Positions 3,810 through 21,365 of a stretch of DNA of 64,000 nucleotides are shown here, in pieces. Made by a program: the position numbers and the translations under genes. The DNA lies in assembly GCA_040878325.1 (NCBI GenBank), contig JBBDMM010000018.1, positions 83,083 to 147,082 of the forward strand, read 5' to 3'. The notes under the pieces were generated by a model. That model searched no databases. It was given only the letters and a program-made list of their open reading frames with translations, and was not told the origin of the DNA. Each line of letters opens with the position of its first letter. Position 1 is the stretch's first letter. The DNA is from Acidimicrobiia bacterium. GTDB taxonomy: Bacteria; Actinomycetota; Acidimicrobiia; Spongiisociales; UBA11373.

Positions 3810-5285
3810 ATGTTCGCTTCAGTCACCTCATCTGCCCTCGTCGGCGTCGAGCCCCGGCCCGTTCGAGTCGAAGCACACGTCTCCGGCACCGCGGGAGGCC
3901 GCGACCGGTTCAACATCGTCGGCCTGCCCGACGCCTCCATACGCGAGGCCCGTCAGCGGGTCCAGTCGGCGATCCTCGCCACCGGGCATCCCTTTCCCGA
4001 CCGCCGCATCACGGTCAACCTTGCACCGGCCGACTTGCCCAAGGTTGGATCGGCGTACGACCTGCCCATTGCGCTGGGAGTCCTGGCGGCCATCGGCGGA
4101 CTCCCGGCCTATGCCACCAAGGTCGTGGCCCTGGGCGAACTCGCTCTCGACGGTGCGGTGCGGGCGGTGCGCGGCGGGCTTGCCGCCGGGATCGTCGCTG
4201 CCCGCCGGGGTATGCCCTGCATCGTGGGGGTCGACGGCGGCGCCGAGGCGGCGTTGTCGGGGGCCGATGTTCGGGGGGTCACCAGCCTGGCTCACGCCAT
4301 GTCGGTGTGCCGCGGTGAAGACCGAGGTCTTCCGGCGCCGGAAGCGGCGCCACCCATCGAAACCTGCCTCGATCTGTCATCGGTGCGGGGGCAGGCGACG
4401 GCCCGGCGCGCCCTGGAGGTGGCGGCGGCCGGCGGCCACCATTTGCTGTTCGTGGGCCCACCGGGAGCGGGCAAGACGATGCTGGCACGGGCGATGCCCG
4501 GTGTGCTGCCCGACCTTTCCCCGGCGGAGGCACTCGAGGTGGCCCAAGCCCACTCGGCCGCGGGCCGCCCTCCCGCGGTGGGACGCCGCCCACCGTTTCG
4601 GAGCCCGCATCACAGCGCCACCCCGGCAGCCATTCTCGGTGGAGGGTCGGGAGTGCCCGTTCCGGGGGAACTGACCCTTGCCGACCGCGGTGTTCTCTTC
4701 CTCGATGAACTGGCCGAATTCCCGTCGCATCTTCTCGACACCCTGCGCCAGCCGATCGAGGAGGGTCGAGTGCATATCGCCCGCAAGGGGGTGTCGGTGG
4801 CGTTCCCGTGTCGGGTGCAGTTGGTGGCAGCCACCAACCCCTGCCCCTGCGGATATCTGGGGGACGGTCGCACGCCCTGCCGATGCTCGCGGCCGGCGGT
4901 CGACAAGTATCGGACCCGCCTATCGGGCCCGTTGCTCGACCGGTTCGACCTGCGGGTCACCGTGCCTCGGGTCGAGGCGGCCGAACTGCTGGGAGCGGGC
5001 GGTGAGCCATCGGCCGCCATCCGTTCTCGGGTGCTGGAGGCTCGTCAGATTCAGCAGGACCGCGGGGTGCTCAACCGATCGTTGAGCCGCGACCAGCTCG
5101 ACGGGCTTCCGTGGGACGTCGACGCCGGGCGGATGCTGGCGTTGGCAATGGATCGGCAGGCACTCACCGGCCGGGGATGGGACCGGGTGCGCAAGACCGC
5201 CCGAACGATCGCCGATCTCGAAGGCGCCGAACAGGCCGGGGGCAATCATGTGGCCGAGGCGCTCGCCCTCAGGAGCGTGTTGTGA
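3810..5285 (+). CDS. comM: YifB/ComM family Mg-chelatase-like AAA+ ATPase
   Basis: N-terminal Lon-like domain, Walker A GPPGAGKT, and C-terminal ChlI-like domain with a CPCG zinc motif. Confidence 0.9.
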   Translation: MFASVTSSALVGVEPRPVRVEAHVSGTAGGRDRFNIVGLPDASIREARQRVQSAILATGHPFPDRRITVNLAPADLPKVGSAYDLPIALGVLAAIGGLPAYATKVVALGELALDGAVRAVRGGLAAGIVAARRGMPCIVGVDGGAEAALSGADVRGVTSLAHAMSVCRGEDRGLPAPEAAPPIETCLDLSSVRGQATARRALEVAAAGGHHLLFVGPPGAGKTMLARAMPGVLPDLSPAEALEVAQAHSAAGRPPAVGRRPPFRSPHHSATPAAILGGGSGVPVPGELTLADRGVLFLDELAEFPSHLLDTLRQPIEEGRVHIARKGVSVAFPCRVQLVAATNPCPCGYLGDGRTPCRCSRPAVDKYRTRLSGPLLDRFDLRVTVPRVEAAELLGAGGEPSAAIRSRVLEARQIQQDRGVLNRSLSRDQLDGLPWDVDAGRMLALAMDRQALTGRGWDRVRKTARTIADLEGAEQAGGNHVAEALALRSVL

Positions 5286-6331
5286 GCCGCGATGATCGGG
5301 TCGGGGTGGCGTTCTTGGGTCTTCATCCCGACCGGGCCCGCACCGAGGTCGAGCGCCACGGGTCGGTGGCTTCGGTGCTGCGCCTCGCTGCCCGCGCCCG
5401 GCTCGACGGCATCGCACCCCACCGGGTGGTTCCGCCCGCGGAGCGTGTCGAGGCGATGGAGCGGGCGGGCTGCCGGCCGGTGCTCCTGGGGGATCCCGAC
5501 TACCCCACCGCTCTTGCCGAGCTCGGCGACCCACCCGATGTCCTGTTCGTGCGCGGTTCGCTTCCCATGGTTCCCGGGGTGGCGGTGGTCGGCACCAGGC
5601 GCTGCACCGGCTACGGCAGGCGGTTGGCGACAGCGTTCGGGAGAGCGATCGCGGGGGCGGGGTGGCCTCTGATCTCGGGGCTGGCGCGGGGTATCGACGG
5701 CGCCGCCCATCGGGGAACCCTCGAGGCCAGTGGCATTGGGGTGGCCGTGCTGGGATCAGGGTCGGATGTCCTCTACCCGCCAGATCATCGGGAACTCCAC
5801 GACGGGTTGCTCGAATCGGGTGGCGCGGTGATAACCGAGTATCCGCCGGGCACTCGTCCCGACGGATGGCGCTTCCCGCCCCGCAACCGCATCATTTCGG
5901 GTCTCTCGGCGGCGGTCGTGGTCGTGGAGGCCGCGGTGACCGGTGGTGCGCTGGTGACGGCGATGCGCGCCGGGGAACAGGGACGCGCGCTATTCGCGGT
6001 GCCGGGCGACGTCGATCGGGAAGCCTCGGTTGGCTGCAACATGTTGATCAGAGACGGCGCGGTCCCCGTGCTCGGCGCCGAAGACCTGATCGAGGCTCTC
6101 TCCCTGGTCCTGGGCCCTCCCCGACGAATGACCCCTGCAGCCACGGCCGCTTCGGTAACCGGGGTGGACGCCCTGGTGCTGGCCGCCACCGGGACCCCGG
6201 TCACCGCTGATCGCCTGGCAGAGATCGTCGGGTTGCCGGTTTCGGAGGTCCTCGGCGCCATCGCCCGTCTCGAACTCGCCGGCCATGTCGTGACAGGTGA
6301 TGGGGTGGTCGCCGCGGCCGATCAGCGGTAG
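5282..6331 (+). CDS. dprA: DNA-processing protein DprA
   Basis: GLARGIDGAAHRGTL...PPRNRIISGLS...ALFAVPGD. GTG at 5282 overlaps the comM stop (GTGA). Confidence 0.85.
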   Translation: MSRDDRVGVAFLGLHPDRARTEVERHGSVASVLRLAARARLDGIAPHRVVPPAERVEAMERAGCRPVLLGDPDYPTALAELGDPPDVLFVRGSLPMVPGVAVVGTRRCTGYGRRLATAFGRAIAGAGWPLISGLARGIDGAAHRGTLEASGIGVAVLGSGSDVLYPPDHRELHDGLLESGGAVITEYPPGTRPDGWRFPPRNRIISGLSAAVVVVEAAVTGGALVTAMRAGEQGRALFAVPGDVDREASVGCNMLIRDGAVPVLGAEDLIEALSLVLGPPRRMTPAATAASVTGVDALVLAATGTPVTADRLAEIVGLPVSEVLGAIARLELAGHVVTGDGVVAAADQR

Positions 6332-10518: not shown

Positions 10519-11070
10519 GTGATCGACGAGCTACTCCGCGAAGCCGAAGCAAAGATGCATCAGGCGATCGAGCACGTCCGGGGCGAGTTCGGTTCGGTGC
10601 GAACCGGTCGGGCGAATCCATCGATCCTCCACCGGGTGCACGTGGATTACTACGGCACGCCAACGCCTCTGCAACAGCTCGCCTCGGTCTCTGTTCCCGA
10701 ATCCCAGCTGCTCGTGATCGCTCCCTACGACCGGGGGTCGCTCGGTGAGATCGAACGGGCCATTCAGTCGTCAGGCCTGGGGTTGAACCCATCGAATGAC
10801 GGGACCGTGATCAGGCTGTCGTTCCCGCCACTCAACGAGGAACGGCGCCGGGAATTGATCAAGGTCGTCCGCCACATGGCGGAGGAGGGGCGGGTTGCCA
10901 TCCGCAACATACGCCGCCACACCAAGTCCGATCTCGAAGCACTCGAAGGCGAGGTGTCGGAGGACGACGTACGGCGGGGAGAGGCCCGCCTCCAGGAGAT
11001 CACCGACGGTCACACGAGTCGGATCGACGAGCTGCTCGAGCACAAAGAGGCCGAACTGCTGGAGGTGTGA
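10519..11070 (+). CDS. frr: Ribosome recycling factor
   Basis: VIDELLREAEAKMHQAIEHVRGEFGSVRTGRANPSIL. GTG 10519 is preceded by an AGGAGG RBS. The ORF-track start at 10414 is an upstream in-frame extension. Confidence 0.9.
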   Translation: MIDELLREAEAKMHQAIEHVRGEFGSVRTGRANPSILHRVHVDYYGTPTPLQQLASVSVPESQLLVIAPYDRGSLGEIERAIQSSGLGLNPSNDGTVIRLSFPPLNEERRRELIKVVRHMAEEGRVAIRNIRRHTKSDLEALEGEVSEDDVRRGEARLQEITDGHTSRIDELLEHKEAELLEV

Positions 11071-13721
11071 GCCCCGGCAGGCGAGGAGGCGGCGTGAGCG
11101 ACAGGGGAGACAACGACTTTCAGCCCCATCCGGGCGACCCCTGGCATCCCACGTGGGATAGCGCATACGCTGTCGATCGGCCCGTCGATGCTCCCGAAGC
11201 GGATGAGTCCGACCCGGACGGATCTGCTTCCGGAAAGACCAAGCGGGCAAAGCGCGGTCGCCTTGGACGTCGTCGCAAGGATTCCCCGGCTGAGGCGGCA
11301 AGTGACGTCGAAGAGGAGTCGATCGACGATCCGACCCGCGGTGAGGTCGACTTCGATCTCCCGGCGGCGCCGGTAGCCGAGCCGCCGACCGAGGACCGCG
11401 CCCCACTTCCCGCCTGGCTGGCTGAGTCCGGGCCCGACTCCCCGGCCGCACCCGCGCTCGAGGTCGAATTGCCGTCGTGGGTCGGCGGCGCGACTGCCGG
11501 TGCCGATGACGCCGGTGGCGAGTTCCCCGATCAGGTCTTCGACGACCAGGACGAAGGCGACGACGAGTTGGACGACGGAATCAGCGCGCCGGCCGCGGTC
11601 GAGGCATCGGACGAAATTGCGTCGGTACCCCCTCGTGAAGTTCCCGATGACCTGGCGGCGGTGCTCGACGCGCTCGGCGACGACGGCGACGAGATCGAAG
11701 TCCTCGCGGTGGAAGCCTTCGAAGTCGAAGCCGAGGAAGAGGATCCGGAGGAGTTGCCCGATCTCGAGTCACTCGTCGGAGCAGTCGGCGGCTTCCAGGA
11801 CCCCTCGCCCGAGGACGCCGCGGCTCGCTCCGAGTACGGGGTTGCCGGGCGGGATGCGTTCGATGCGCTGAAAGACCCCGATGGATCCGATGACCTCGGC
11901 GACTGGCATCAGTTTGCGGGAGCCACCGGCGACGAGTCGGAGACGCTGCCCATCGAGGTGGTGGTTGATCCCCCGGTGCCTGAGCCGCGCGAAGGTGGGA
12001 AGCGCGGTCGTTGGTTCCGGCGCAAGGTCGAGGAAGCCGACGAGTCGGAGGTCGTCGCCGAGGAGGCGGCCGATTGGGCCGATGACGGCACTGCGATTCC
12101 GGCGGGATGGTTCGCCGAGATCGACGAAGACACCGTGGTCACGCCCCCGGTCGAGCCCCCCGACACCGAGTATCCGGAACCCGACGAGATAGTCGCGGTG
12201 GCGCCGACCGACCTCGGGTCGGATGAGGTCGAGGAGTTGCCGGTGGCGCTGGCGCCGGGGGATTGGTCGGATGAGGTCGAGGAGTTGCCGGCGGCACCGG
12301 TGGCGGGGGATTGGTCGGATGAGGGTGAGGAGTTGCCGGTGGTGCCGGTGGCGCCGTTGGATTGGTCGGTTGAGGGGGAGGTGCTGCGTTCGAATCTCCC
12401 TGCCGCGCCGCAGCCGGGACTCTTCGACGACCGGCATGCCACGGAGGAGTTCGATCCTATCGCTGCAGGCATCGGTGGGGTCGCTCCCGACATTTCCGCA
12501 ACCCCGGATTGGGAAGACGACCGGGCCGGGGAAGCACCAGTGGCGCAAGGGTTAGCCCCCCTGGGCTTCGACGACGGTGAATCGGCCGGTCACGACGAGG
12601 AGCTCACCTCGGACGAGGATGACGAGGGATACGAAGACCGCTGGGTGACTGGCCCCATCGATCTCGGCGGCGAGTACCTCGGGGCGGCCGATGACTCTGG
12701 CGCCTACGAGTCCATCGACGAACTCGACGACGCCACCTATCGGACCTCGTCGACGACCGAACACCGCGGCCTCGCCGAGGAGATCGCCCTCACGGGCGAC
12801 GAGGAGCACGAATGGCAGGCAATGGCCGCGGCGATGCCCGGGGTCGAATCGGGCGTGGTCGGTTTCGAGGATGTGGCCGACCTCGGCGACGACGAGGAGT
12901 ACCTCGATACCAGGGTGCGGTCGGATTTGGGCACCCGGATCCTCACCGGAGTCGTGCTCGGCGGCTTCTTCCTCGGCTCGCTGTGGGTCGCCCCCGAAGC
13001 CCTGGCGGGTTTCATCGCAATCATCCTGCTGCTGGGACTCGGTGAATTCTTCGCAACCGTGCGCCGACGCGGCTGGCGGCCGCTGGCCCTCTTCGGATTT
13101 CTGGGCGCCATCTCGATGCTGGCTACCACCTGGTTCCATGGCCCGATCGCTGTCGCCGCCACGCTGGCGATGACGACGGTCGTGACGTTCTTTGTGTTCG
13201 CCTTCTCGCCGCTGCGCCGGGATGCGCTGACCAACGGCGGTCTCACCGTTCTCGGCCTGGCGTGGGTCGTCGGCACCGCGGCGTTCGTGTACCCGATCCT
13301 GGCCAACGAGGACTATCGGGTCCTGGTGATTGCCATCGTCGTCGTGACCGCAGCCATGGACATCGGCGCATACGCCGTCGGTCGGGCGTGGGGGGTTCGC
13401 GCGCTTGCGCCCGTCCTCTCCCCGAACAAGTCGGTGGAGGGCCTGGTCGGAGGGATCGGCTTGTGCATGCTCGCCGCAGCCGCCGTGGGCAACTTCCTCG
13501 AGCCATTCGACCTGCTCTCCGGCATCGGGTTGGGGATCGTCGTGGTATTCGCCGCGCCCCTGGGCGACCTGGCCGAATCGATGTTCAAGCGAAGCCTCGG
13601 AGTGAAGGACATGGGGTCGATCCTCCCCGGGCACGGCGGAATCCTCGACCGGGTCGATGCCCTCCTCTTCGTGATTCCTGCAGCGTGGGCGTTCTATCAG
13701 ACCGTCGGGTTCCTGGGGTGA
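11067..13721 (+). CDS. cdsA: Phosphatidate cytidylyltransferase (CdsA) with ~590-aa acidic low-complexity N-terminal extension
   Basis: The C-terminal ~290 aa is canonical CdsA (multiple TM helices, SVEGLVGG...AESMFKRSLGVKDMGSILPGHGGILDR). The N-terminal part is D/E/P/A-rich with DWSDEVEELP repeats. The frame is continuously open from GTG 11067, which overlaps the frr stop. The true start is unverified. Confidence 0.75.
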   Translation: MSPGRRGGGVSDRGDNDFQPHPGDPWHPTWDSAYAVDRPVDAPEADESDPDGSASGKTKRAKRGRLGRRRKDSPAEAASDVEEESIDDPTRGEVDFDLPAAPVAEPPTEDRAPLPAWLAESGPDSPAAPALEVELPSWVGGATAGADDAGGEFPDQVFDDQDEGDDELDDGISAPAAVEASDEIASVPPREVPDDLAAVLDALGDDGDEIEVLAVEAFEVEAEEEDPEELPDLESLVGAVGGFQDPSPEDAAARSEYGVAGRDAFDALKDPDGSDDLGDWHQFAGATGDESETLPIEVVVDPPVPEPREGGKRGRWFRRKVEEADESEVVAEEAADWADDGTAIPAGWFAEIDEDTVVTPPVEPPDTEYPEPDEIVAVAPTDLGSDEVEELPVALAPGDWSDEVEELPAAPVAGDWSDEGEELPVVPVAPLDWSVEGEVLRSNLPAAPQPGLFDDRHATEEFDPIAAGIGGVAPDISATPDWEDDRAGEAPVAQGLAPLGFDDGESAGHDEELTSDEDDEGYEDRWVTGPIDLGGEYLGAADDSGAYESIDELDDATYRTSSTTEHRGLAEEIALTGDEEHEWQAMAAAMPGVESGVVGFEDVADLGDDEEYLDTRVRSDLGTRILTGVVLGGFFLGSLWVAPEALAGFIAIILLLGLGEFFATVRRRGWRPLALFGFLGAISMLATTWFHGPIAVAATLAMTTVVTFFVFAFSPLRRDALTNGGLTVLGLAWVVGTAAFVYPILANEDYRVLVIAIVVVTAAMDIGAYAVGRAWGVRALAPVLSPNKSVEGLVGGIGLCMLAAAAVGNFLEPFDLLSGIGLGIVVVFAAPLGDLAESMFKRSLGVKDMGSILPGHGGILDRVDALLFVIPAAWAFYQTVGFLG
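12215..12386. repeat. 48-bp tandem repeat x3.5 inside the cdsA N-terminal extension (encodes DWSDEVEELPxxPVAx)
   Basis: gattggtcggatgaggtcgaggagttgccggyggcrccggtggcgsss repeated head-to-tail. Confidence 0.8.
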
Positions 13722-16016: not shown

Positions 16017-17221
16017 TCGAGCGCCGCAAGACCCGTGGCCTGATGGTGGGCAAGGTGGCCGTCGGCGGGGGAGCCCCGGTGACGGTTCAGTCGATGACGA
16101 CCACGAAGACCGCCGATGTCGATGGCACCCTTGCGCAGGTGTACGCGCTGGCCGGGGCAGGCGCCGACATCGTTCGGATCACCTGTAACGACGCCGACGC
16201 CGCAGCTGGTCTGGCCGAAATCGTGCCGCGATCGCCGGTGCCCATCATCGCCGACATCCACTTCCAGTACCGGCTGGCGCTGGCTGCCCTCGAGGCGGGG
16301 GTCGACGGTCTCCGGCTCAATCCCGGGAACATCCGCAACCCGGCGCACATCAAGGAGGTGGCGATCGCCGCCCGCGAGCGGGGGGTGCCCATCCGGGTCG
16401 GGGTGAACGCCGGTTCCCTCGACAAGGATCTGCTCGCGAAGCATGGTGCGCCCGTTCCCGAGGCGCTGGTGGAGTCCGCCCTCCACGAGATCAGGCTGCT
16501 CGAGGAGGTCGATTTCCACGACATCAAGATCTCTGTGAAACACAGCCATGTGCCTTCGATGGTCGATTCGTATCGGCTGCTCGCCGACCGGATCGACTAC
16601 CCGCTCCACCTCGGGGTCACCGAAGCCGGCCCCCCGCCGTCGGGGCTGATGAAGTCGGTCGCCGGGATCGCCACCCTGCTGCTCGAAGGAATCGGCGACA
16701 CCATCCGGTTCTCACTCACCGCCGACCCGGTCGAGGAGGCGGAGGCCGGCAGGAAGCTCCTCGAGCAATTGGGGCTCCGCGAGCGGGCGAGCCTCGACCT
16801 GATCGCCTGCCCGTCGTGCGGACGGGCCGAGATCGACGTGGTGGCGGTGGCAGCCGAGGCGATGCGGCGCCTCGAAGCCGAGAAGCTGCCGATCCAGGTG
16901 GCGGTGATGGGTTGTGTGGTGAACGGCCCCGGGGAGGCCCGCGAGGCCGATATCGGGATCGCCGCCGGCCGGGGCAAGGGCCACCTGTTCATCAAGGGAA
17001 ACGTGGTTCGGGTGGTCCCGGAAGCAGAAATGGTGGATGCCCTTGTCGACGAGGCGCGCAAGCTGGTTGCAGAGGGGGTCGACGCCCGGCTGGCGGCCGC
17101 AGACGTCGGAGCCGGGGAACTCGCTGAGCAGACCGCTCGCGAGCTGCTCGAGTTCCAGGGCGATGCGAATCAGGTGGCCGAGTTGCGAGAACGCGTGGCG
17201 AAGGTGGCGCGGGGGGAGTAG
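16013..17221 (+). CDS. ispG: 4-hydroxy-3-methylbut-2-enyl diphosphate synthase (flavodoxin)
   Basis: RRKTRGLMVGKVAVGGGAPVTVQSMTTT... and a CPSCGR cluster motif. ATG overlaps the upstream stop (ATGA). Confidence 0.95.
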   Translation: MIERRKTRGLMVGKVAVGGGAPVTVQSMTTTKTADVDGTLAQVYALAGAGADIVRITCNDADAAAGLAEIVPRSPVPIIADIHFQYRLALAALEAGVDGLRLNPGNIRNPAHIKEVAIAARERGVPIRVGVNAGSLDKDLLAKHGAPVPEALVESALHEIRLLEEVDFHDIKISVKHSHVPSMVDSYRLLADRIDYPLHLGVTEAGPPPSGLMKSVAGIATLLLEGIGDTIRFSLTADPVEEAEAGRKLLEQLGLRERASLDLIACPSCGRAEIDVVAVAAEAMRRLEAEKLPIQVAVMGCVVNGPGEAREADIGIAAGRGKGHLFIKGNVVRVVPEAEMVDALVDEARKLVAEGVDARLAAADVGAGELAEQTARELLEFQGDANQVAELRERVAKVARGE

Positions 17222-17356
17222 GGCCGTCACCAGTCATGGGCTAGGGGGCGTACGCCGCCGTTGCCCGTTGGTGGGTCGTCACTTGCCAATGGTCTCTCAG
17301 GCGGGGTGCTAGTACCTCTCGGGGTCACCGTCGTCCCCGGCGGGGGAGTCGACGCG

Positions 17357-17875
17357 CTACACGAACAGCTGAACGTCGGCGTCGGCGGCGAAGTCGAGGA
17401 AGGCTGCGGCGCCGGCGATCTCACACCCGGGGATGAGGTCGGACTCCTCGACGCCCATCACGCCCATCGTGGTGGAGCAGGCGAAGAGGCGGACCCCTTG
17501 GCTCTGGGCCATCTCGAGGAACTCGCCCACGGTCGGCATGTTGGATCGCCGCATCCACCGGCGCATCATCGTCGTCGCCGCCCTTGTCGCCCCCGGAAGG
17601 GCCCCGAGGAGGTTGGGCACCCGAATCGGGCCCGACGGGTTGGCAAGCGATGCCACCTTGAGGCGCGAAGTGCGCTTCTCGTGGAGGATGTCGAGTCCGT
17701 AGAAGGTGAAGTAGATTCCTGCCTCCCACCCGAGGCTCACCGCCGTCGTGGCGAGGATCAACGGTGGGTACGCCTGGTCGAGCGTGCCCTTGGAGGCGAC
17801 CATGGCGAGTCGACGGGTCCTGGCATCGTGGCCGGCATTGGCGATGAGGCGTCGCGCCTCTGCCGCGGTCGTCAT
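17357..17875 (-). CDS. DsrE/DsrF-like (YchN-fold) sulfur-relay family protein
   Basis: MTTAAEARRLIANAGH...RRLAMVASKGTLDQAYPPLILATTA...VRLFACSTTM, with a conserved Cys. ATG overlaps the tusA stop (ATGA). Confidence 0.7.
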   Translation of the reverse strand: MTTAAEARRLIANAGHDARTRRLAMVASKGTLDQAYPPLILATTAVSLGWEAGIYFTFYGLDILHEKRTSRLKVASLANPSGPIRVPNLLGALPGATRAATTMMRRWMRRSNMPTVGEFLEMAQSQGVRLFACSTTMGVMGVEESDLIPGCEIAGAAAFLDFAADADVQLFV

Positions 17876-18138
17876 CGTCCCGCCCCCTTCTCGATCCAGA
17901 ACACCTGGGTGCCCCCGCGGTCGTCGGAGCGGGTCAGAATGTCGCCGCGCTGTCGGGCCATGGCGGGGATGTCCTCGAGGGACCCGCGGTCGGTGCAGAT
18001 GAGCTCGAGCACCTGTCCCGGCTCCAGGCTCTTGAGGGCCAGGGCCGCCTTGTACACGGGGAGCGGGCACAGCAGCCCGCTGGTATCGAGGGTGACGGCA
18101 GCCTCGGGATCGCCGGTGGTGGTGTCGGTGTCGGTCAT
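17872..18138 (-). CDS. TusA-like sulfurtransferase (SirA/YedF/YeeD family)
   Basis: 88 aa with the signature LLCPLPV (CPxP) motif. AAAGGA RBS. Confidence 0.75.
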   Translation of the reverse strand: MTDTDTTTGDPEAAVTLDTSGLLCPLPVYKAALALKSLEPGQVLELICTDRGSLEDIPAMARQRGDILTRSDDRGGTQVFWIEKGAGR

Positions 18139-18151
18139 GGGTGGTGTCCTT

Positions 18152-19123
18152 TCAGACGGTAGGAAGGCCCTCGTCTCCGAGAATCTCCGCGAAGTAGCTC
18201 GCGTATTTGAGCCCGGAGTCGGGGGAGACGCCGACGACCATGCCCTCGGCGTCGGCGAATCCCTGGAGGGCGGCGTGGACGATGGCCCCCGTGGAGGGGC
18301 CGACGGTGAGCGCCTCCTCCCGGTAGATGCGCCGGGTGGTGTCGTAGGCGGGCCCGTCGTCGACCCGGATCATCTCGTCGACCACGCTGCGGTCGAAGAT
18401 GGCCGGCTCGGCCGATTCGGCGAGCGACTTGAGGCCGGGGAGCCGGTGCCCCGGCTGCGGCTCGACGCCGATGACCCGGATCGTGGGGTCCTGTTCCTTC
18501 AGGAACCGGCCGACTCCGGTCAGGGTGCCCCCGGTGCCGAGGCCGGCGACAAACACCCGCACCCGCCCCTCGGTCTGCGCCCAGATCTCCGGTCCGGTGG
18601 TCTCGTAGTGGGCGGCGACGTTGTCCGGGTTGCCGTACTGGTCGGTCATCACGAACCGGTCGTCGGAGGCGGCAATCGACCGGGCGAGGGCGATGGCGCC
18701 GTCTTTGGGGTGGTCGACGGGGCACAGGTCGTCGGGGGTCTCCCACACCTCGGCGCCGAGCATGCGCAGCAGCACCTTCTTCTCCTCGGGGACCCCGTCG
18801 GGGATGGTCACGGTGAGGCGGCACCCGGCCAGCGAGGCGAGGGCGGCGAGGGCGATGCCGGTGTTCCCCGACGACGCCTCGACGATCTCGCGGCCCTCCA
18901 GCTCGCCGCGGGCGGCGAGGCCGGCGATGAGGTGGGCGGCGGCGCGGTCCTTGATCGACCCGAACGGGTTCAGCCATTCGAGCTTCAGATAGAGCCGCAT
19001 GCCGGCCGGGGCGATGCGCCCGAGGCGGACGAGAGGCGTCGGGTTGTCGGGGCCGGGCAGCATGTGGCGCACGTCCTCGTAGCGACGCAGACTGCGGTCG
19101 GTGGTGCTGATCTGTGCAGTCAT
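18152..19123 (-). CDS. cysM: PLP-dependent cysteine synthase, CysM-like (O-phosphoserine/O-acetylserine sulfhydrylase clade)
   Basis: NPFGSIKDRAA, SSGNTGIALA, DQYGNPDNVAAHYETTGPEI, GLGTGGTLTGVGRFL; closest in pattern to mycobacterial CysM. ATG 19123 with an AGGAG RBS. The ORF-track start at 19243 is an upstream extension. Confidence 0.85.
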   Translation of the reverse strand: MTAQISTTDRSLRRYEDVRHMLPGPDNPTPLVRLGRIAPAGMRLYLKLEWLNPFGSIKDRAAAHLIAGLAARGELEGREIVEASSGNTGIALAALASLAGCRLTVTIPDGVPEEKKVLLRMLGAEVWETPDDLCPVDHPKDGAIALARSIAASDDRFVMTDQYGNPDNVAAHYETTGPEIWAQTEGRVRVFVAGLGTGGTLTGVGRFLKEQDPTIRVIGVEPQPGHRLPGLKSLAESAEPAIFDRSVVDEMIRVDDGPAYDTTRRIYREEALTVGPSTGAIVHAALQGFADAEGMVVGVSPDSGLKYASYFAEILGDEGLPTV

Positions 19124-19149
19124 CGGGTCTCCTGGGGTGGTGACGCGAA

Positions 19150-19183
19150 GAACCCGCATCGGACTGTGCGCCGGTGCGGGTTC
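19150..19183 (-). promoter_or_regulatory. Perfect 9-bp-stem hairpin (gaacccgca-N16-tgcgggttc) in the cysM 5' leader, about 30 nt upstream of the start codon
   Basis: Inverted repeat seen directly. It lies between the putative promoter and the RBS. Confidence 0.3.
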
Positions 19184-19277
19184 GGGGGTCCTGTGGCTTG
19201 GTCGGAGGTCAGGGAGCCATCCCGCGCGGCGCTGTGCTCTCACAGCAGCAGCATTGGCACGGGGTGGCGAGGTGACT

Positions 19278-19306
19278 CACCATCGGCATGGTATCGCCCC
19301 GACGCT
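19278..19306 (-). promoter_or_regulatory. Putative sigma-70-like promoter for the cysM operon (TTGACG-N16-TACCAT on the - strand)
   Basis: Hexamers seen on the - strand. It would give a leader of about 150 nt. Confidence 0.3.
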
Positions 19307-19652
19307 GTTCGTCAAGATCGGATCGCCAGTCGTCTTCCATTCCCCCACCTCACGCAACAGAGGTCAAGACCGATTTGCCACCCATCGCCCTCCGGTGGCG
19401 AGGACTCGGAAGTTGGCCTCGCTGAGGATGTCGATCGTCTGCTCCCTGACGCGTTCCCACGTGTGCCGCAGGGTGCCGCCGACCTCCAGCGATCATCCCT
19501 CGCCGAGTCGGTCGCCGAGGTCTGAAAGCGCTCCCCGGAGAGTCCCCCTTGCGGGAGGCGGGAGGCGTGGCCATGGCCCAAGGCGGCCGGGAGCCGCCAG
19601 AAGGCGGAAGGCCCTCTTGCTGGAGACTGGAGACTTCCTATCCTCGCCTCTC

Positions 19653-21365
19653 ATGCGATGGTCACGCGCCTTCATTCCCACGCTTCGGGAGGATCCGACC
19701 GACGCCGAGTCGGCCAATCACCGGTTGCTGGTGCGCGGCGGCTTCATTCGGCGGCTGATGGCGGGGTCGTGGTCGCTGTTGCCGCTCGGCAAGCGGGTCG
19801 CCGACAAGGTGGAGCGGATCATCCGCGAGGAGATGAATCGCATCGGCGGCCAGGAGATGCTGCTCCCGGTGGTACACCCCGCCGATCCCTGGAAGAAGAC
19901 CGGCCGCTGGGACGACGTCGAGGGCATCGTGGTGAAGTTCCAGGATCGCAAGGAGAGCGATCTGCTCCTGGCGATCACCCACGAGGAGATCTTCACGCTG
20001 ATCGCCGCGGAGCTCTCGTCGTACCGGCAGCTCCCGCAGCTCTGGTACCACCTGCAGACCAAGTTCCGTGACGAGCCCCGGCCCAGGGGAGGCCTCCTCC
20101 GGGTACGCGAATTCACCATGAAGGATTCGTACTCCTTCGATGTCGACCGGGCGGGCCTCGACGTGCAATTCGAGGCGCACCGCGGTGCCTACTCGAGGAT
20201 CTTCGAGCGTCTCGGGCTGGAGGTGATCCCGGTGCAAGCCTCGTCGGGGACGATGGGCGGCAAGGAGTCGGTCGAGTTCATGGTGGAGAGCGAGGCCGGC
20301 GAGGACGACATCGTGGTGTGCCCCAACTGCGGGTACGCCGCCAACACCGAACGGGCCACATCGGGGGCCCCGCCCGTCGAGGACGAGCCGTGGGAGGGTG
20401 AGCCGGCGGAGTTCGATACCCCGGGGATCCGGACTATCGCAGCCCTGGCCGACGCCTTCGACTTCGCCTCCCCCGAGCAGCAGATCAAGACGCTTGCCTA
20501 CGTCGTCGGGGGCGAGCTGACGCTGATCCTGCTTCCCGGGCACCACGAGTTGATGGAACAGAAGCTGATCGACGGCCTGGGGACGTTCGATCTCCGTCCC
20601 GCCCACGACGACGAGATCGTCGCCGCCCTCGGTGCCCACCCCGGCAGCCTGGGTGCTGTTGGAGTCCGCCACCTCCGGGTTATCGCCGACCCGGCACTGC
20701 GGGGACGCTTCAACATGGTGACCGGGGCCAACCGAGACGACTGGCACCTGCGCGGCGTAGACGTGGAGCGGGACATTGCAGTCGACCAGTGGCTCGGCGT
20801 ACGGCTCACGAAGCTCGGGGACCCATGCATTGAGTGCGGGTCGCCCGTGCAGGTGCTCCGTTCCATCGAGGTGGGCCACATCTTCAAACTCGGCACCAAG
20901 TACGCCGAGGCGCTCGGGGCGCGCGTTGTCGACGAGCAGGGCGAGGAGCGCGTCATCTGGATGGGGTCGTACGGCATCGGCGTCGGCCGCAGCGTGGCGG
21001 CGATCGTCGAATCGTCTTTCGACGACAAGGGGATCGTCTGGCCGACGGCGATGGCCCCGTACGAGGCGGTGGTGACCGTGATCAAGATGGACGACGTCCC
21101 CACCGTGGCGGCGGCAGATGCGATCTATCAGGGGTTGGGGGACGCGGGCATCGATGTGATCATCGACGACCGTGAGGAACGGCCCGGGGTGAAATTCGCC
21201 GACGCAGAACTGATCGGCATCCCGTATCGTGTGACCGTCGGCCCCAAGGGCCTGGCCTCCGGAACGGTGGAGATCACCCGACGGAGGGACGGTGTCACCG
21301 AGTCGGTGCCCGTCGACCAGGCCGTGGCGACGGTGGCCAAGGCGGTCCTGGCGGAGCGACGCTGA
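19653..21365 (+). CDS. proS: Proline--tRNA ligase (bacterial type with editing domain)
   Basis: MRWSRAFIPTLREDPTDAESANHRLLVRGGFIRRL...; class II motifs. The ORF-track start at 19101 is an upstream extension across the divergent spacer. Confidence 0.9.
   Translation: MRWSRAFIPTLREDPTDAESANHRLLVRGGFIRRLMAGSWSLLPLGKRVADKVERIIREEMNRIGGQEMLLPVVHPADPWKKTGRWDDVEGIVVKFQDRKESDLLLAITHEEIFTLIAAELSSYRQLPQLWYHLQTKFRDEPRPRGGLLRVREFTMKDSYSFDVDRAGLDVQFEAHRGAYSRIFERLGLEVIPVQASSGTMGGKESVEFMVESEAGEDDIVVCPNCGYAANTERATSGAPPVEDEPWEGEPAEFDTPGIRTIAALADAFDFASPEQQIKTLAYVVGGELTLILLPGHHELMEQKLIDGLGTFDLRPAHDDEIVAALGAHPGSLGAVGVRHLRVIADPALRGRFNMVTGANRDDWHLRGVDVERDIAVDQWLGVRLTKLGDPCIECGSPVQVLRSIEVGHIFKLGTKYAEALGARVVDEQGEERVIWMGSYGIGVGRSVAAIVESSFDDKGIVWPTAMAPYEAVVTVIKMDDVPTVAAADAIYQGLGDAGIDVIIDDREERPGVKFADAELIGIPYRVTVGPKGLASGTVEITRRRDGVTESVPVDQAVATVAKAVLAERR

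Follow-up and report, generated by a model that had tools for sequence, protein, structure and literature searches.

Gene organization at the locus

The genes described here lie on contig JBBDMM010000018.1 of an Acidimicrobiia metagenome-assembled genome (MAG), of which one stretch of 64,000 nucleotides, referred to below as the window, was analyzed. Between ispG and proS, three open reading frames (ORFs) on the minus strand, at positions 19123 to 17357, encode a CysM-like enzyme, a TusA-family protein, and a DsrE2-like protein (Table 1). The spacing between the cysM-like gene and tusA was measured at 13 nt (18151 to 18139), one less than the 14 nt of the original prediction, which was made from the sequence of the window. 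The tusA stop and the dsrE2 start share an exact ATGA overlap (17875 to 17872), and the predicted set of three translationally coupled minus-strand genes was confirmed. AGGAG is found 8 nt upstream of the cysM-like start, and purine-rich stretches resembling Shine-Dalgarno sequences precede all three starts. The cysM-like start was backed by a 323-aa homologue (P0001; 92% identity, 100% coverage), and that of the DsrE2-like gene agreed with a 100% identical NCBI protein from an Acidimicrobiia MAG (P0121).

Table 1. Features of the three-gene locus, in window coordinates
Feature	Position	Strand	Remarks
cysM-like gene, pyridoxal phosphate (PLP) beta-replacement enzyme, 323 aa	18152..19123	-	ATG at 19123, TGA at 18152; PF00291, E = 1e-69; fold-type II
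tusA, 88 aa	17872..18138	-	PF01206, E = 3e-19; CPLP motif
dsrE2B-type DsrE-family gene, 172 aa	17357..17875	-	PF13686 (DrsE_2), E = 1e-41
Lys58 codon, PLP-binding lysine in GSIKDR	18950..18952	-	Aligned with the SVKDR/SIKDR lysine of E. coli and M. tuberculosis CysM
Clade-specific insert TPDDLCPVDHPKDG of the cysM-like enzyme	18698..18739	-	Cys134 codon, 18724-18722
TusA Cys24 of the CPLP motif	codon 18069-18067	-	
DsrE2B-type Cys133 of FACSTTMG	codon 17479-17477	-	
Promoter-like site TTGACG-16-TACCAT	19288..19315	-	Approximately 165 nt upstream of the cysM-like start, between that gene and the divergent proS

The locus is flanked by housekeeping genes: to one side lie dxr, rseP, and ispG, and to the other lie proS (true start near 19653), rimP, and nusA. 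The promoter-like site was the only one found in a consensus scan that was expected to return 0.1, and it is a pattern match only. A scan of positions 16900 to 19900 with Rfam detected no known RNA element or riboswitch at an E value of ≤1. The proS frame remains open for 184 codons upstream (19101 to 19652, plus strand), with the match to the ProS model beginning at residue 185; this stretch overlaps with the region of the divergent promoter and is probably untranslated.

Phylogenetic position and motifs of the CysM-like enzyme

When searched against the NCBIfam models, the enzyme fell under every curated CysK/CysM cut-off, scoring 267 bits with the broader cysKM subfamily model (cut-off, 344), 257 with cysM (394), 240 with NF008735 (413), and 234 with cysK (351); the models for CysM membership are TIGR01138 and NF008735. 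Its best sequence matches in the PDB were CysM of Salmonella and E. coli, or O-acetylserine sulfhydrylase B (OASS-B), at 208 to 211 bits and approximately 38 to 40% identity, and the match to M. tuberculosis CysM (PDB 3dwg) reached 161 bits. A neighbor-joining tree with 200 bootstraps was then calculated from the window-type sequences, 37 CysM/CysK-type sequences from named genomes, E. coli CysK and CysM, and M. tuberculosis CysM, the last of which was checked to be 100% identical to PDB 3dwg. The window enzyme was placed in a clade of its own with a bootstrap value of 88%, or 97% when a Coriobacteriia outlier (L019) was included. Both reference CysM proteins fell apart from this clade, that of E. 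coli clustering with Rosenbergiella, Pseudomonadales, and others and that of M. tuberculosis with Nakamurella and Frankiales at 100% bootstrap. The enzyme had been predicted to be closest to the mycobacterial CysM class; that affinity was rejected on the basis of the lower score in the PDB (161 versus 211 bits) and the separate clade in the tree. Clustering with housekeeping CysK, which was also tested, was likewise not observed, the window clade being separate.

The expected catalytic motifs were present, namely, Lys58 within GSIKDR, a lysine invariant in the clade, and the substrate loop SSGNTG at residues 84 to 89. The long loop of CysK is absent, and in its place is the short CysM-type loop GHRLPGLK, in which the basic K232 aligns with R210 in E. 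coli CysM and R220 in M. tuberculosis CysM. This position is occupied by Arg in a few members of the clade; it is basic in the O-acetylserine (OAS)-using E. coli CysM as well and so does not discriminate between O-phosphoserine (OPS) and OAS as substrates.

The hallmark of the clade is a surface insert of 6 to 7 residues, TPDDLCPVDHPKDG, whose Cys134 was invariant in 56/56 clade sequences. In the alignment, the insert was not seen in E. coli CysK or CysM, in M. tuberculosis CysM, or in any other CysM-type sequence sampled. Aligned to E. coli CysK, it ends a few residues before the GMKG loop, which in OASS structures presumably lines the entrance to the active site, and from this alignment Cys134 may be placed near that entrance. 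An AlphaFold model of the enzyme (pLDDT, the per-residue confidence measure, of 85 overall) had the generic fold of OASS and cystathionine beta-synthase (CBS), and a fold search with it returned OASS/CBS structures throughout, at a TM score of about 0.82 that did not discriminate between subfamilies.

Two carrier-type proteins with single invariant cysteines

The TusA protein matched PF01206 with 68.9 bits (gathering threshold, 28.6) and was under the cut-off of each equivalog model, with 33.7 versus 78 bits for NF001423 (TusA), 36.2 versus 79 for NF008242 (YedF), and 17.9 versus 147.5 for NF041048 (YeeD). Judged by these scores, it belongs to the TusA family but is orthologous to none of the named E. 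coli paralogues. Its best PDB matches were Ta1170 and E. coli TusA. Since the best of the NCBIfam TusA matches, although weak, was YedF, a reading in terms of selenium metabolism was considered and set aside: the score is far under the cut-off, and the sister operons described below are those of sulfate assimilation.

The DsrE2-like protein matched PF13686 with 142.8 bits (gathering threshold, 25) and the DsrE2 model NF047629 with 144.6 bits, under its cut-off of 210. Its best PDB match was 2qs7, SSO1126 of S. solfataricus, in which FACSTTM aligns with the FACSTTMG of the window protein and which was classed as DsrE2B by Liu et al. (PMC4175335). Profile searches bore out the predicted families, with PF00291 and PF01206 both matched and the DsrE-family protein matching PF13686 and also PF02635. 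The Joint Genome Institute (JGI) names homologues of this gene (P0122 to P0240, homologues of 17357 to 17875) "peroxiredoxin family protein," a name for which the PF13686 and PF02635 matches give no support.

The cysteine of the CPxP motif and the conserved Cys of the DsrE-family protein, both pointed out in the original prediction, proved to be invariant, as Cys24 in 82/82 TusA sequences and as Cys133 in 83/83 DsrE2 sequences, and neither protein has any other invariant cysteine. Together with Cys134 of the enzyme, each of the three proteins therefore has one invariant cysteine. In proteins of the TusA family, the conserved Cys bears sulfur as a persulfide or thiosulfonate, which is exchanged with proteins of the DsrE family (PMC4175335, PMC11094781). 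Treated with tetrathionate, TusA and DsrE3A of M. cuprina acquire Cys-S-thiosulfonates, reported as a +112 Da adduct, and pass them to each other, with no reaction toward thiosulfate itself (PMC4175335), and the TusA-like protein YeeD binds and decomposes thiosulfate during its assimilatory uptake (PMC11073785). The function of DsrE2 proteins has been described as unclear (PMC11094781).

Conservation of the gene trio across phyla

To survey the trio from the side of the enzyme, one genome per species was taken and searched with tblastn; the resulting counts describe a sample, among the matches listed, and are no census. tusA was found directly downstream of the enzyme gene in all 10 loci with at least 63% identity, whose hosts were Acidimicrobiia, Acidobacteriota, Armatimonadota, and other Actinomycetota. 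dsrE2 was present in 9 of these 10; it was missing from L012, and two others were cut by contig ends. No cultured carrier of the triad was identified among these species-genome matches.

From the side of DsrE2, 80 loci with 65 to 82% identity were collected from metagenome contigs, 11 of which were uninformative because the contig ended upstream. In 67 of the 69 informative loci (97%), the cysM-like gene, tusA, and dsrE2 followed in this order, often with the same 4-nt overlaps. Whether the tusA-dsrE2 pair is conserved independently of the synthase was tested on the same set, and the pair stood without it in only 2/69 loci. These are L089 (3257 to 4071) and L133 (1514 to 2286), both with unrelated genes lacking a Pfam match upstream; the genes retained in L012 span 4953 to 6235.

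The neighborhoods of two close homologues held the same trio with 4-nt overlaps, and the trio recurred in loci L001 to L007, while the flanks varied from ispG/proS in the window to APH/DUF4386 in L001 and EamA/peptidase M19 in L005. All-against-all clustering of the ORFs revealed no conserved fourth gene, whether transporter, rhodanese, CysE, or reductase, as no flank family occurred in more than 7/91 triad loci. It follows that the trio is the unit under selection. The trio is conserved beyond chance and across several phyla, and the conservation of the gene neighborhood, which had been proposed as a check for actinobacteria, extends beyond them.

Linkage to TusA also followed the phylogeny. 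With a broader TusA profile, a TusA domain was detected within 5 kb of 13/13 clade members at ≥60% identity compared with 4/65 other CysM/CysK loci (among the matches listed). Within the CysK/CysM family, the enzyme belongs to a clade of its own that is linked to TusA. The four nonclade loci (L043, L058 from Comamonas thiooxydans, L066, and L081) were all from Comamonadaceae, and in each, a canonical cysM was followed first by a NUDIX hydrolase gene and next by a TusA-like gene with the CPLP motif.

In a tblastn search with M. tuberculosis CysO, no CysO-like ORF adjoined the triad genes at any triad locus or in the region of the window, in agreement with the predicted absence of a ThiS/MoaD-like ORF. 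The sole match at a triad locus was weak (E = 4e-8) and lay approximately 3 kb downstream in L163. The same search placed CysO-like ORFs beside 11 other CysM-type genes (L034, L035, L036, L040, L041, L046, L051, L065, L075, L077, and L080). Such neighbors came from Chloroflexia, Anaerolineaceae, Limnocylindrales, Roseiflexaceae, Vicinamibacterales, a deltaproteobacterial MAG, and Actinobacteria, and given this spread of lineages, the CysO/CysM pairing is widespread.

Sister operons encoding a sulfite reductase

Three clade members at 60 to 67% identity, from Deferrimicrobiaceae, a deltaproteobacterial MAG, and Opitutaceae (among the matches listed), had no dsrE2. In these, the enzyme gene is followed by a sulfite reductase that either carries a TusA domain or is itself followed by one. 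The fusions differ in their reductase part, comprising a small AsrC-like reductase with a ferredoxin insert in the deltaproteobacterial MAG and a 798-aa NirA-type sulfite reductase in Opitutaceae, each with a C-terminal TusA domain; in L022, the domains NIR_SIR_ferr, NIR_SIR, Fer4, and TusA are found in one protein. The fusion genes, located at 5982 to 8429 in L020, 6014 to 8455 in L175/L176, and approximately 6120 to 7220 in L022, lie directly downstream of the insert-bearing cysM-like gene.

A search with the enzyme of L022, together with the neighborhoods of four homologues, yielded complete sister operons of three kinds. The first consists of a sulfate ABC transporter, siroheme synthase, the cysM-like gene, a small sulfite reductase, TusA, an Rrf2 regulator, and a Cys_Met_Meta_PP gene; the second consists of a phosphoadenosine phosphosulfate/adenosine phosphosulfate reductase, ATP sulfurylase, TauE, siroheme synthase, the cysM-like gene, a small sulfite reductase, and TusA; and in the third, the cysM-like gene is followed by the sulfite reductase-TusA fusion. 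The NCBIfam cut-offs were passed by the sulfate permease, CysG, the phosphoadenylyl-sulfate reductase, and the sulfate adenylyltransferase. The sulfate-binding protein was slightly under its cut-off (148.1 versus 155.5 bits), the small sulfite reductase was far under that for AsrC (143 versus 324), and the gene of the cystathionine gamma-synthase family was under every equivalog cut-off. The regulator passed the Rrf2 superfamily model only, being under the cut-off for CymR (89 versus 195). The sister enzymes retain the insert in the form DDLCP(V/I)(D/N)HPKDG.

The presence of sulfate assimilation genes together with TusA in these operons places the clade in assimilatory sulfate reduction. Therefore, the enzyme clade is assimilatory and has a TusA partner in every architecture seen, with DsrE2B and the sulfite reductase as alternative third components.

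Relationship to characterized sulfur transfer systems

The closest parallel is the CysM/CysO system of M. tuberculosis (with Mec), in which, as here, the gene for a CysM-type PLP enzyme adjoins that for a small sulfur carrier, an arrangement that here too would give a carrier-fed route in place of one from free sulfide. The two enzymes also share the short loop and the basic residue at the R220 position (K232). However, TusA and DsrE2B would be carriers of Cys-bound sulfur, whereas CysO is ubiquitin-like and carries sulfur as a C-terminal thiocarboxylate. In contrast to CysM/CysO, the triad has no adjoining CysO-like ORF and no recurring Mec or MoeZ gene beside it, and its enzyme differs from M. 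tuberculosis CysM, an O-phosphoserine sulfhydrylase, in belonging to another clade and in having the additional insert with Cys134. On this comparison, the module would be a carrier-fed parallel to CysO/CysM in function, while its carrier family, clade, and gene partners place it outside that system.

Enterobacterial CysM (OASS-B), which forms S-sulfocysteine from thiosulfate, resembles the window enzyme in overall architecture and catalytic motifs, and carriers of the TusA/DsrE type would suit its use of thiosulfate. The window enzyme differs in scoring under the cut-offs, in its separate clade, in the insert TPDDLCPVDHPKDG, and in having tusA and dsrE2, not cysPUWA, as its gene partners.

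The adjacent TusA/DsrE2-type pair with its conserved cysteines recalls the dsrE3A-dsrE2B-tusA cluster of M. cuprina and the rhd-tusA-dsrE2 clusters of sulfur oxidizers. Those clusters, which serve dissimilatory sulfur oxidation, adjoin hdr, dsr, rhodanese, or lipoamide genes, none of which recur at the triad. Unlike the Dsr and sHdr relays, the triad has a cysteine synthase as its constant partner and has assimilatory sister operons. A link to Dsr or Hdr is part of the definition of the DsrE2 group (PMC4175335), whereas the flanks of the triad, in 91 loci, show no such link.

Finally, YeeE/YeeD (TsuA/TsuB) is an example of a TusA-family protein with a reactive Cys that serves cysteine assimilation (PMC11073785), a role that would be comparable to the one proposed here. 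In contrast to that system, the triad has no linked YeeE-like membrane protein, the TusA partner is an enzyme rather than a transporter, and the match of the window TusA to the YeeD model is negligible.

A proposed TusA-coupled route to cysteine

The reading we favor is that the trio constitutes a self-contained operon for TusA-coupled assimilatory cysteine synthesis, with persulfide transfer as the preferred version in detail; we consider it evenly balanced whether this is correct. It is founded on observed features, namely, the gene content, the identity of the clade, the linkage of the genes, the invariant cysteines, and the sister operons with their assimilatory context. The coupled unit and the lack of CysO in the original prediction were borne out, and the carrier-fed route put forward there is strengthened by the sister operons, the coupling having gained considerable support from comparative genomics, while the affinity to mycobacterial CysM, on which it had also drawn, was not retained. 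That prediction had remarked that the pathway was not known as a characterized one; no published account of the trio or of a TusA-dependent cysteine synthase was found in the literature searched, the coverage of which was incomplete, so that the absence is no proof.

In the proposed mechanism, the enzyme would form an aminoacrylate from O-acetyl- or O-phospho-serine, and sulfur would reach it as sulfane sulfur, in the form of a persulfide on Cys24 of TusA, rather than as free sulfide. Loading or recycling of TusA would fall to Cys133 of DsrE2B in the window and, in the sister operons, to their small sulfite reductase. The persulfide would then attack the aminoacrylate to yield a mixed disulfide, TusA-S-S-cysteine. 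Cys134, DsrE2B (Cys133), or sulfide would resolve this intermediate, giving cysteine and the regenerated carrier. If sulfide were the resolving agent, the persulfide would be regenerated with no net redox cost, and TusA-SSH would act as a catalytic, sulfide-capturing carrier. That the proteins interact, what chemical form the sulfur takes on its carrier, in which order it is passed on, and what Cys134 does are inferred. In its most specific form, as a new class of cysteine synthase fed by TusA persulfide, with Cys134 as the relay and DsrE2B or the small sulfite reductase as the loader, the proposal is advanced tentatively, as a possibility rather than an expectation.

Several points weigh against the favored reading. 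Loading a thiol with the sulfide produced by a six-electron sulfite reductase requires an oxidation or a preexisting persulfide or disulfide. The TusA sequences of the two architectures are only approximately 22% identical and have CPLP in one case and CPMT in the other, and from this divergence they may do different jobs. The loop with the Cys134 insert was modeled by AlphaFold with modest confidence (pLDDT of about 69). The association is also not without exception, as L089 and L133 have tusA-dsrE2 without the synthase (2/69) although at least 1.3 kb of upstream sequence was available, and L012, from an Acidimicrobiia genome, keeps the enzyme and tusA without dsrE2. The closest solved relatives of the enzyme are the thiosulfate-using enterobacterial CysM proteins, and JGI calls close homologues S-sulfocysteine synthase; both the CysM affinity and this naming suit a thiosulfate route equally well. 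Finally, the only DsrE2B studied, that of M. cuprina, was inert to six sulfur compounds and took no thiosulfonate from TusA or DsrE3A (PMC4175335).

Such a thiosulfate route is the alternative that survives best, and it may be correct, although we would not bet on it. Here, an OASS-B-like enzyme would convert thiosulfate and OAS (or OPS) to S-sulfocysteine, and TusA and DsrE2B would act as a thiol pair or as thiosulfonate carriers and not as sulfur donors. They would bring thiosulfate or cleave S-sulfocysteine to cysteine and sulfite. The sulfite so released would, in the sister operons, be reduced by the sulfite reductase, whether adjacent or fused, allowing both sulfur atoms to be used. The 211-bit match to Salmonella/E. 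coli CysM, the short loop of CysM type whose basic residue aligns with R210, and the JGI name of close homologues, S-sulfo-L-cysteine synthase, are all consistent with this, as are the formation of Cys-S-thiosulfonates by TusA and DsrE3A (PMC4175335) and the handling of assimilatory thiosulfate by the TusA-like YeeD (PMC11073785). In the sister operons, the transporter is of the sulfate/thiosulfate family, and a sulfite reductase adjoining or fused to TusA is suited to the capture of released sulfite. However, the enzyme does not group with enterobacterial CysM and scores under the cysM cut-offs, and some sister operons have a full route from sulfate to sulfite (Sat and CysH) for which no thiosulfate is needed. 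The M. cuprina TusA and DsrE3A react with tetrathionate and not with thiosulfate, and DsrE2B reacts with nothing (PMC4175335). Moreover, neither a thiosulfate transporter nor a rhodanese was a recurrent neighbor of the triad in the 91 loci.

A catabolic function is improbable. The PLP enzyme would then be a cysteine or cystine desulfhydrase whose sulfur passes through TusA and DsrE2B to cofactor or tRNA thiolation, to detoxification, or to oxidation. The fold family does include desulfhydrases, and there was a weak NCBIfam match to Cds1 (E = 7e-17); TusA classically takes sulfur derived from cysteine (PMC11094781), and Cys134 could accept a persulfide. However, fold-type II enzymes that catalyze beta-elimination give H2S and not persulfide, the sister operons are anabolic, with genes for taking up, activating, and reducing sulfate together with siroheme synthase and a CymR-like regulator, and no genes for tRNA thiolation, molybdenum cofactor (Moco), Hdr, or Dsr recur beside the triad in the 91 loci.

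That the enzyme is an ordinary sulfide-dependent cysteine synthase, as its complete set of normal O-acetylserine sulfhydrylase catalytic motifs would allow, merely sharing an operon with an unrelated TusA/DsrE2 pair is very unlikely. In 97% of the informative loci, the translationally coupled genes keep their order, in variable contexts and several phyla. The adjacency to TusA follows the clade (13/13 versus 4/65, among the matches listed) and is retained in a second architecture, independent of the first and including gene fusions, and the insert with its invariant cysteine is specific to the clade.

Implications of the proposed TusA-coupled route

Cysteine synthesis is the point of entry of sulfur into biomass, and to our knowledge, CysO/CysM is the only system characterized in which it is fed by a carrier protein. 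The known roles of TusA are in tRNA thiolation, Moco synthesis, dissimilatory sulfur oxidation, and thiosulfate uptake. If TusA-coupled cysteine synthesis is correct, these roles would extend to cysteine biosynthesis itself, DsrE2B, inert in every published assay, would gain a first and testable function, and the fusions of TusA to assimilatory sulfite reductases would be explained. It would also suggest how Acidimicrobiia, abundant but uncultured, and other bacteria of soil, sediment, and the sea assimilate sulfur where free sulfide is very low or toxic, or draw it from thiosulfate and sulfane sulfur. Should the persulfide-fed class exist, several phyla would possess a protein-bound route to cysteine from sulfite reduction or from pools of sulfane sulfur, an echo of the old "carrier-bound" model of assimilatory sulfate reduction. 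The three proteins are small, soluble, and easy to express, and the idea is therefore directly testable.

Additional observation in the window

Elsewhere in the window, a CdsA phosphatidate cytidylyltransferase is encoded at 11067 to 13721 on the plus strand, with the PF01148 match at residues 623 to 879, preceded by an acidic N-terminal extension of approximately 620 aa. This extension holds 3.2 tandem copies of a 48-bp (16-aa) unit, the repeat lying at 12217 to 12375.

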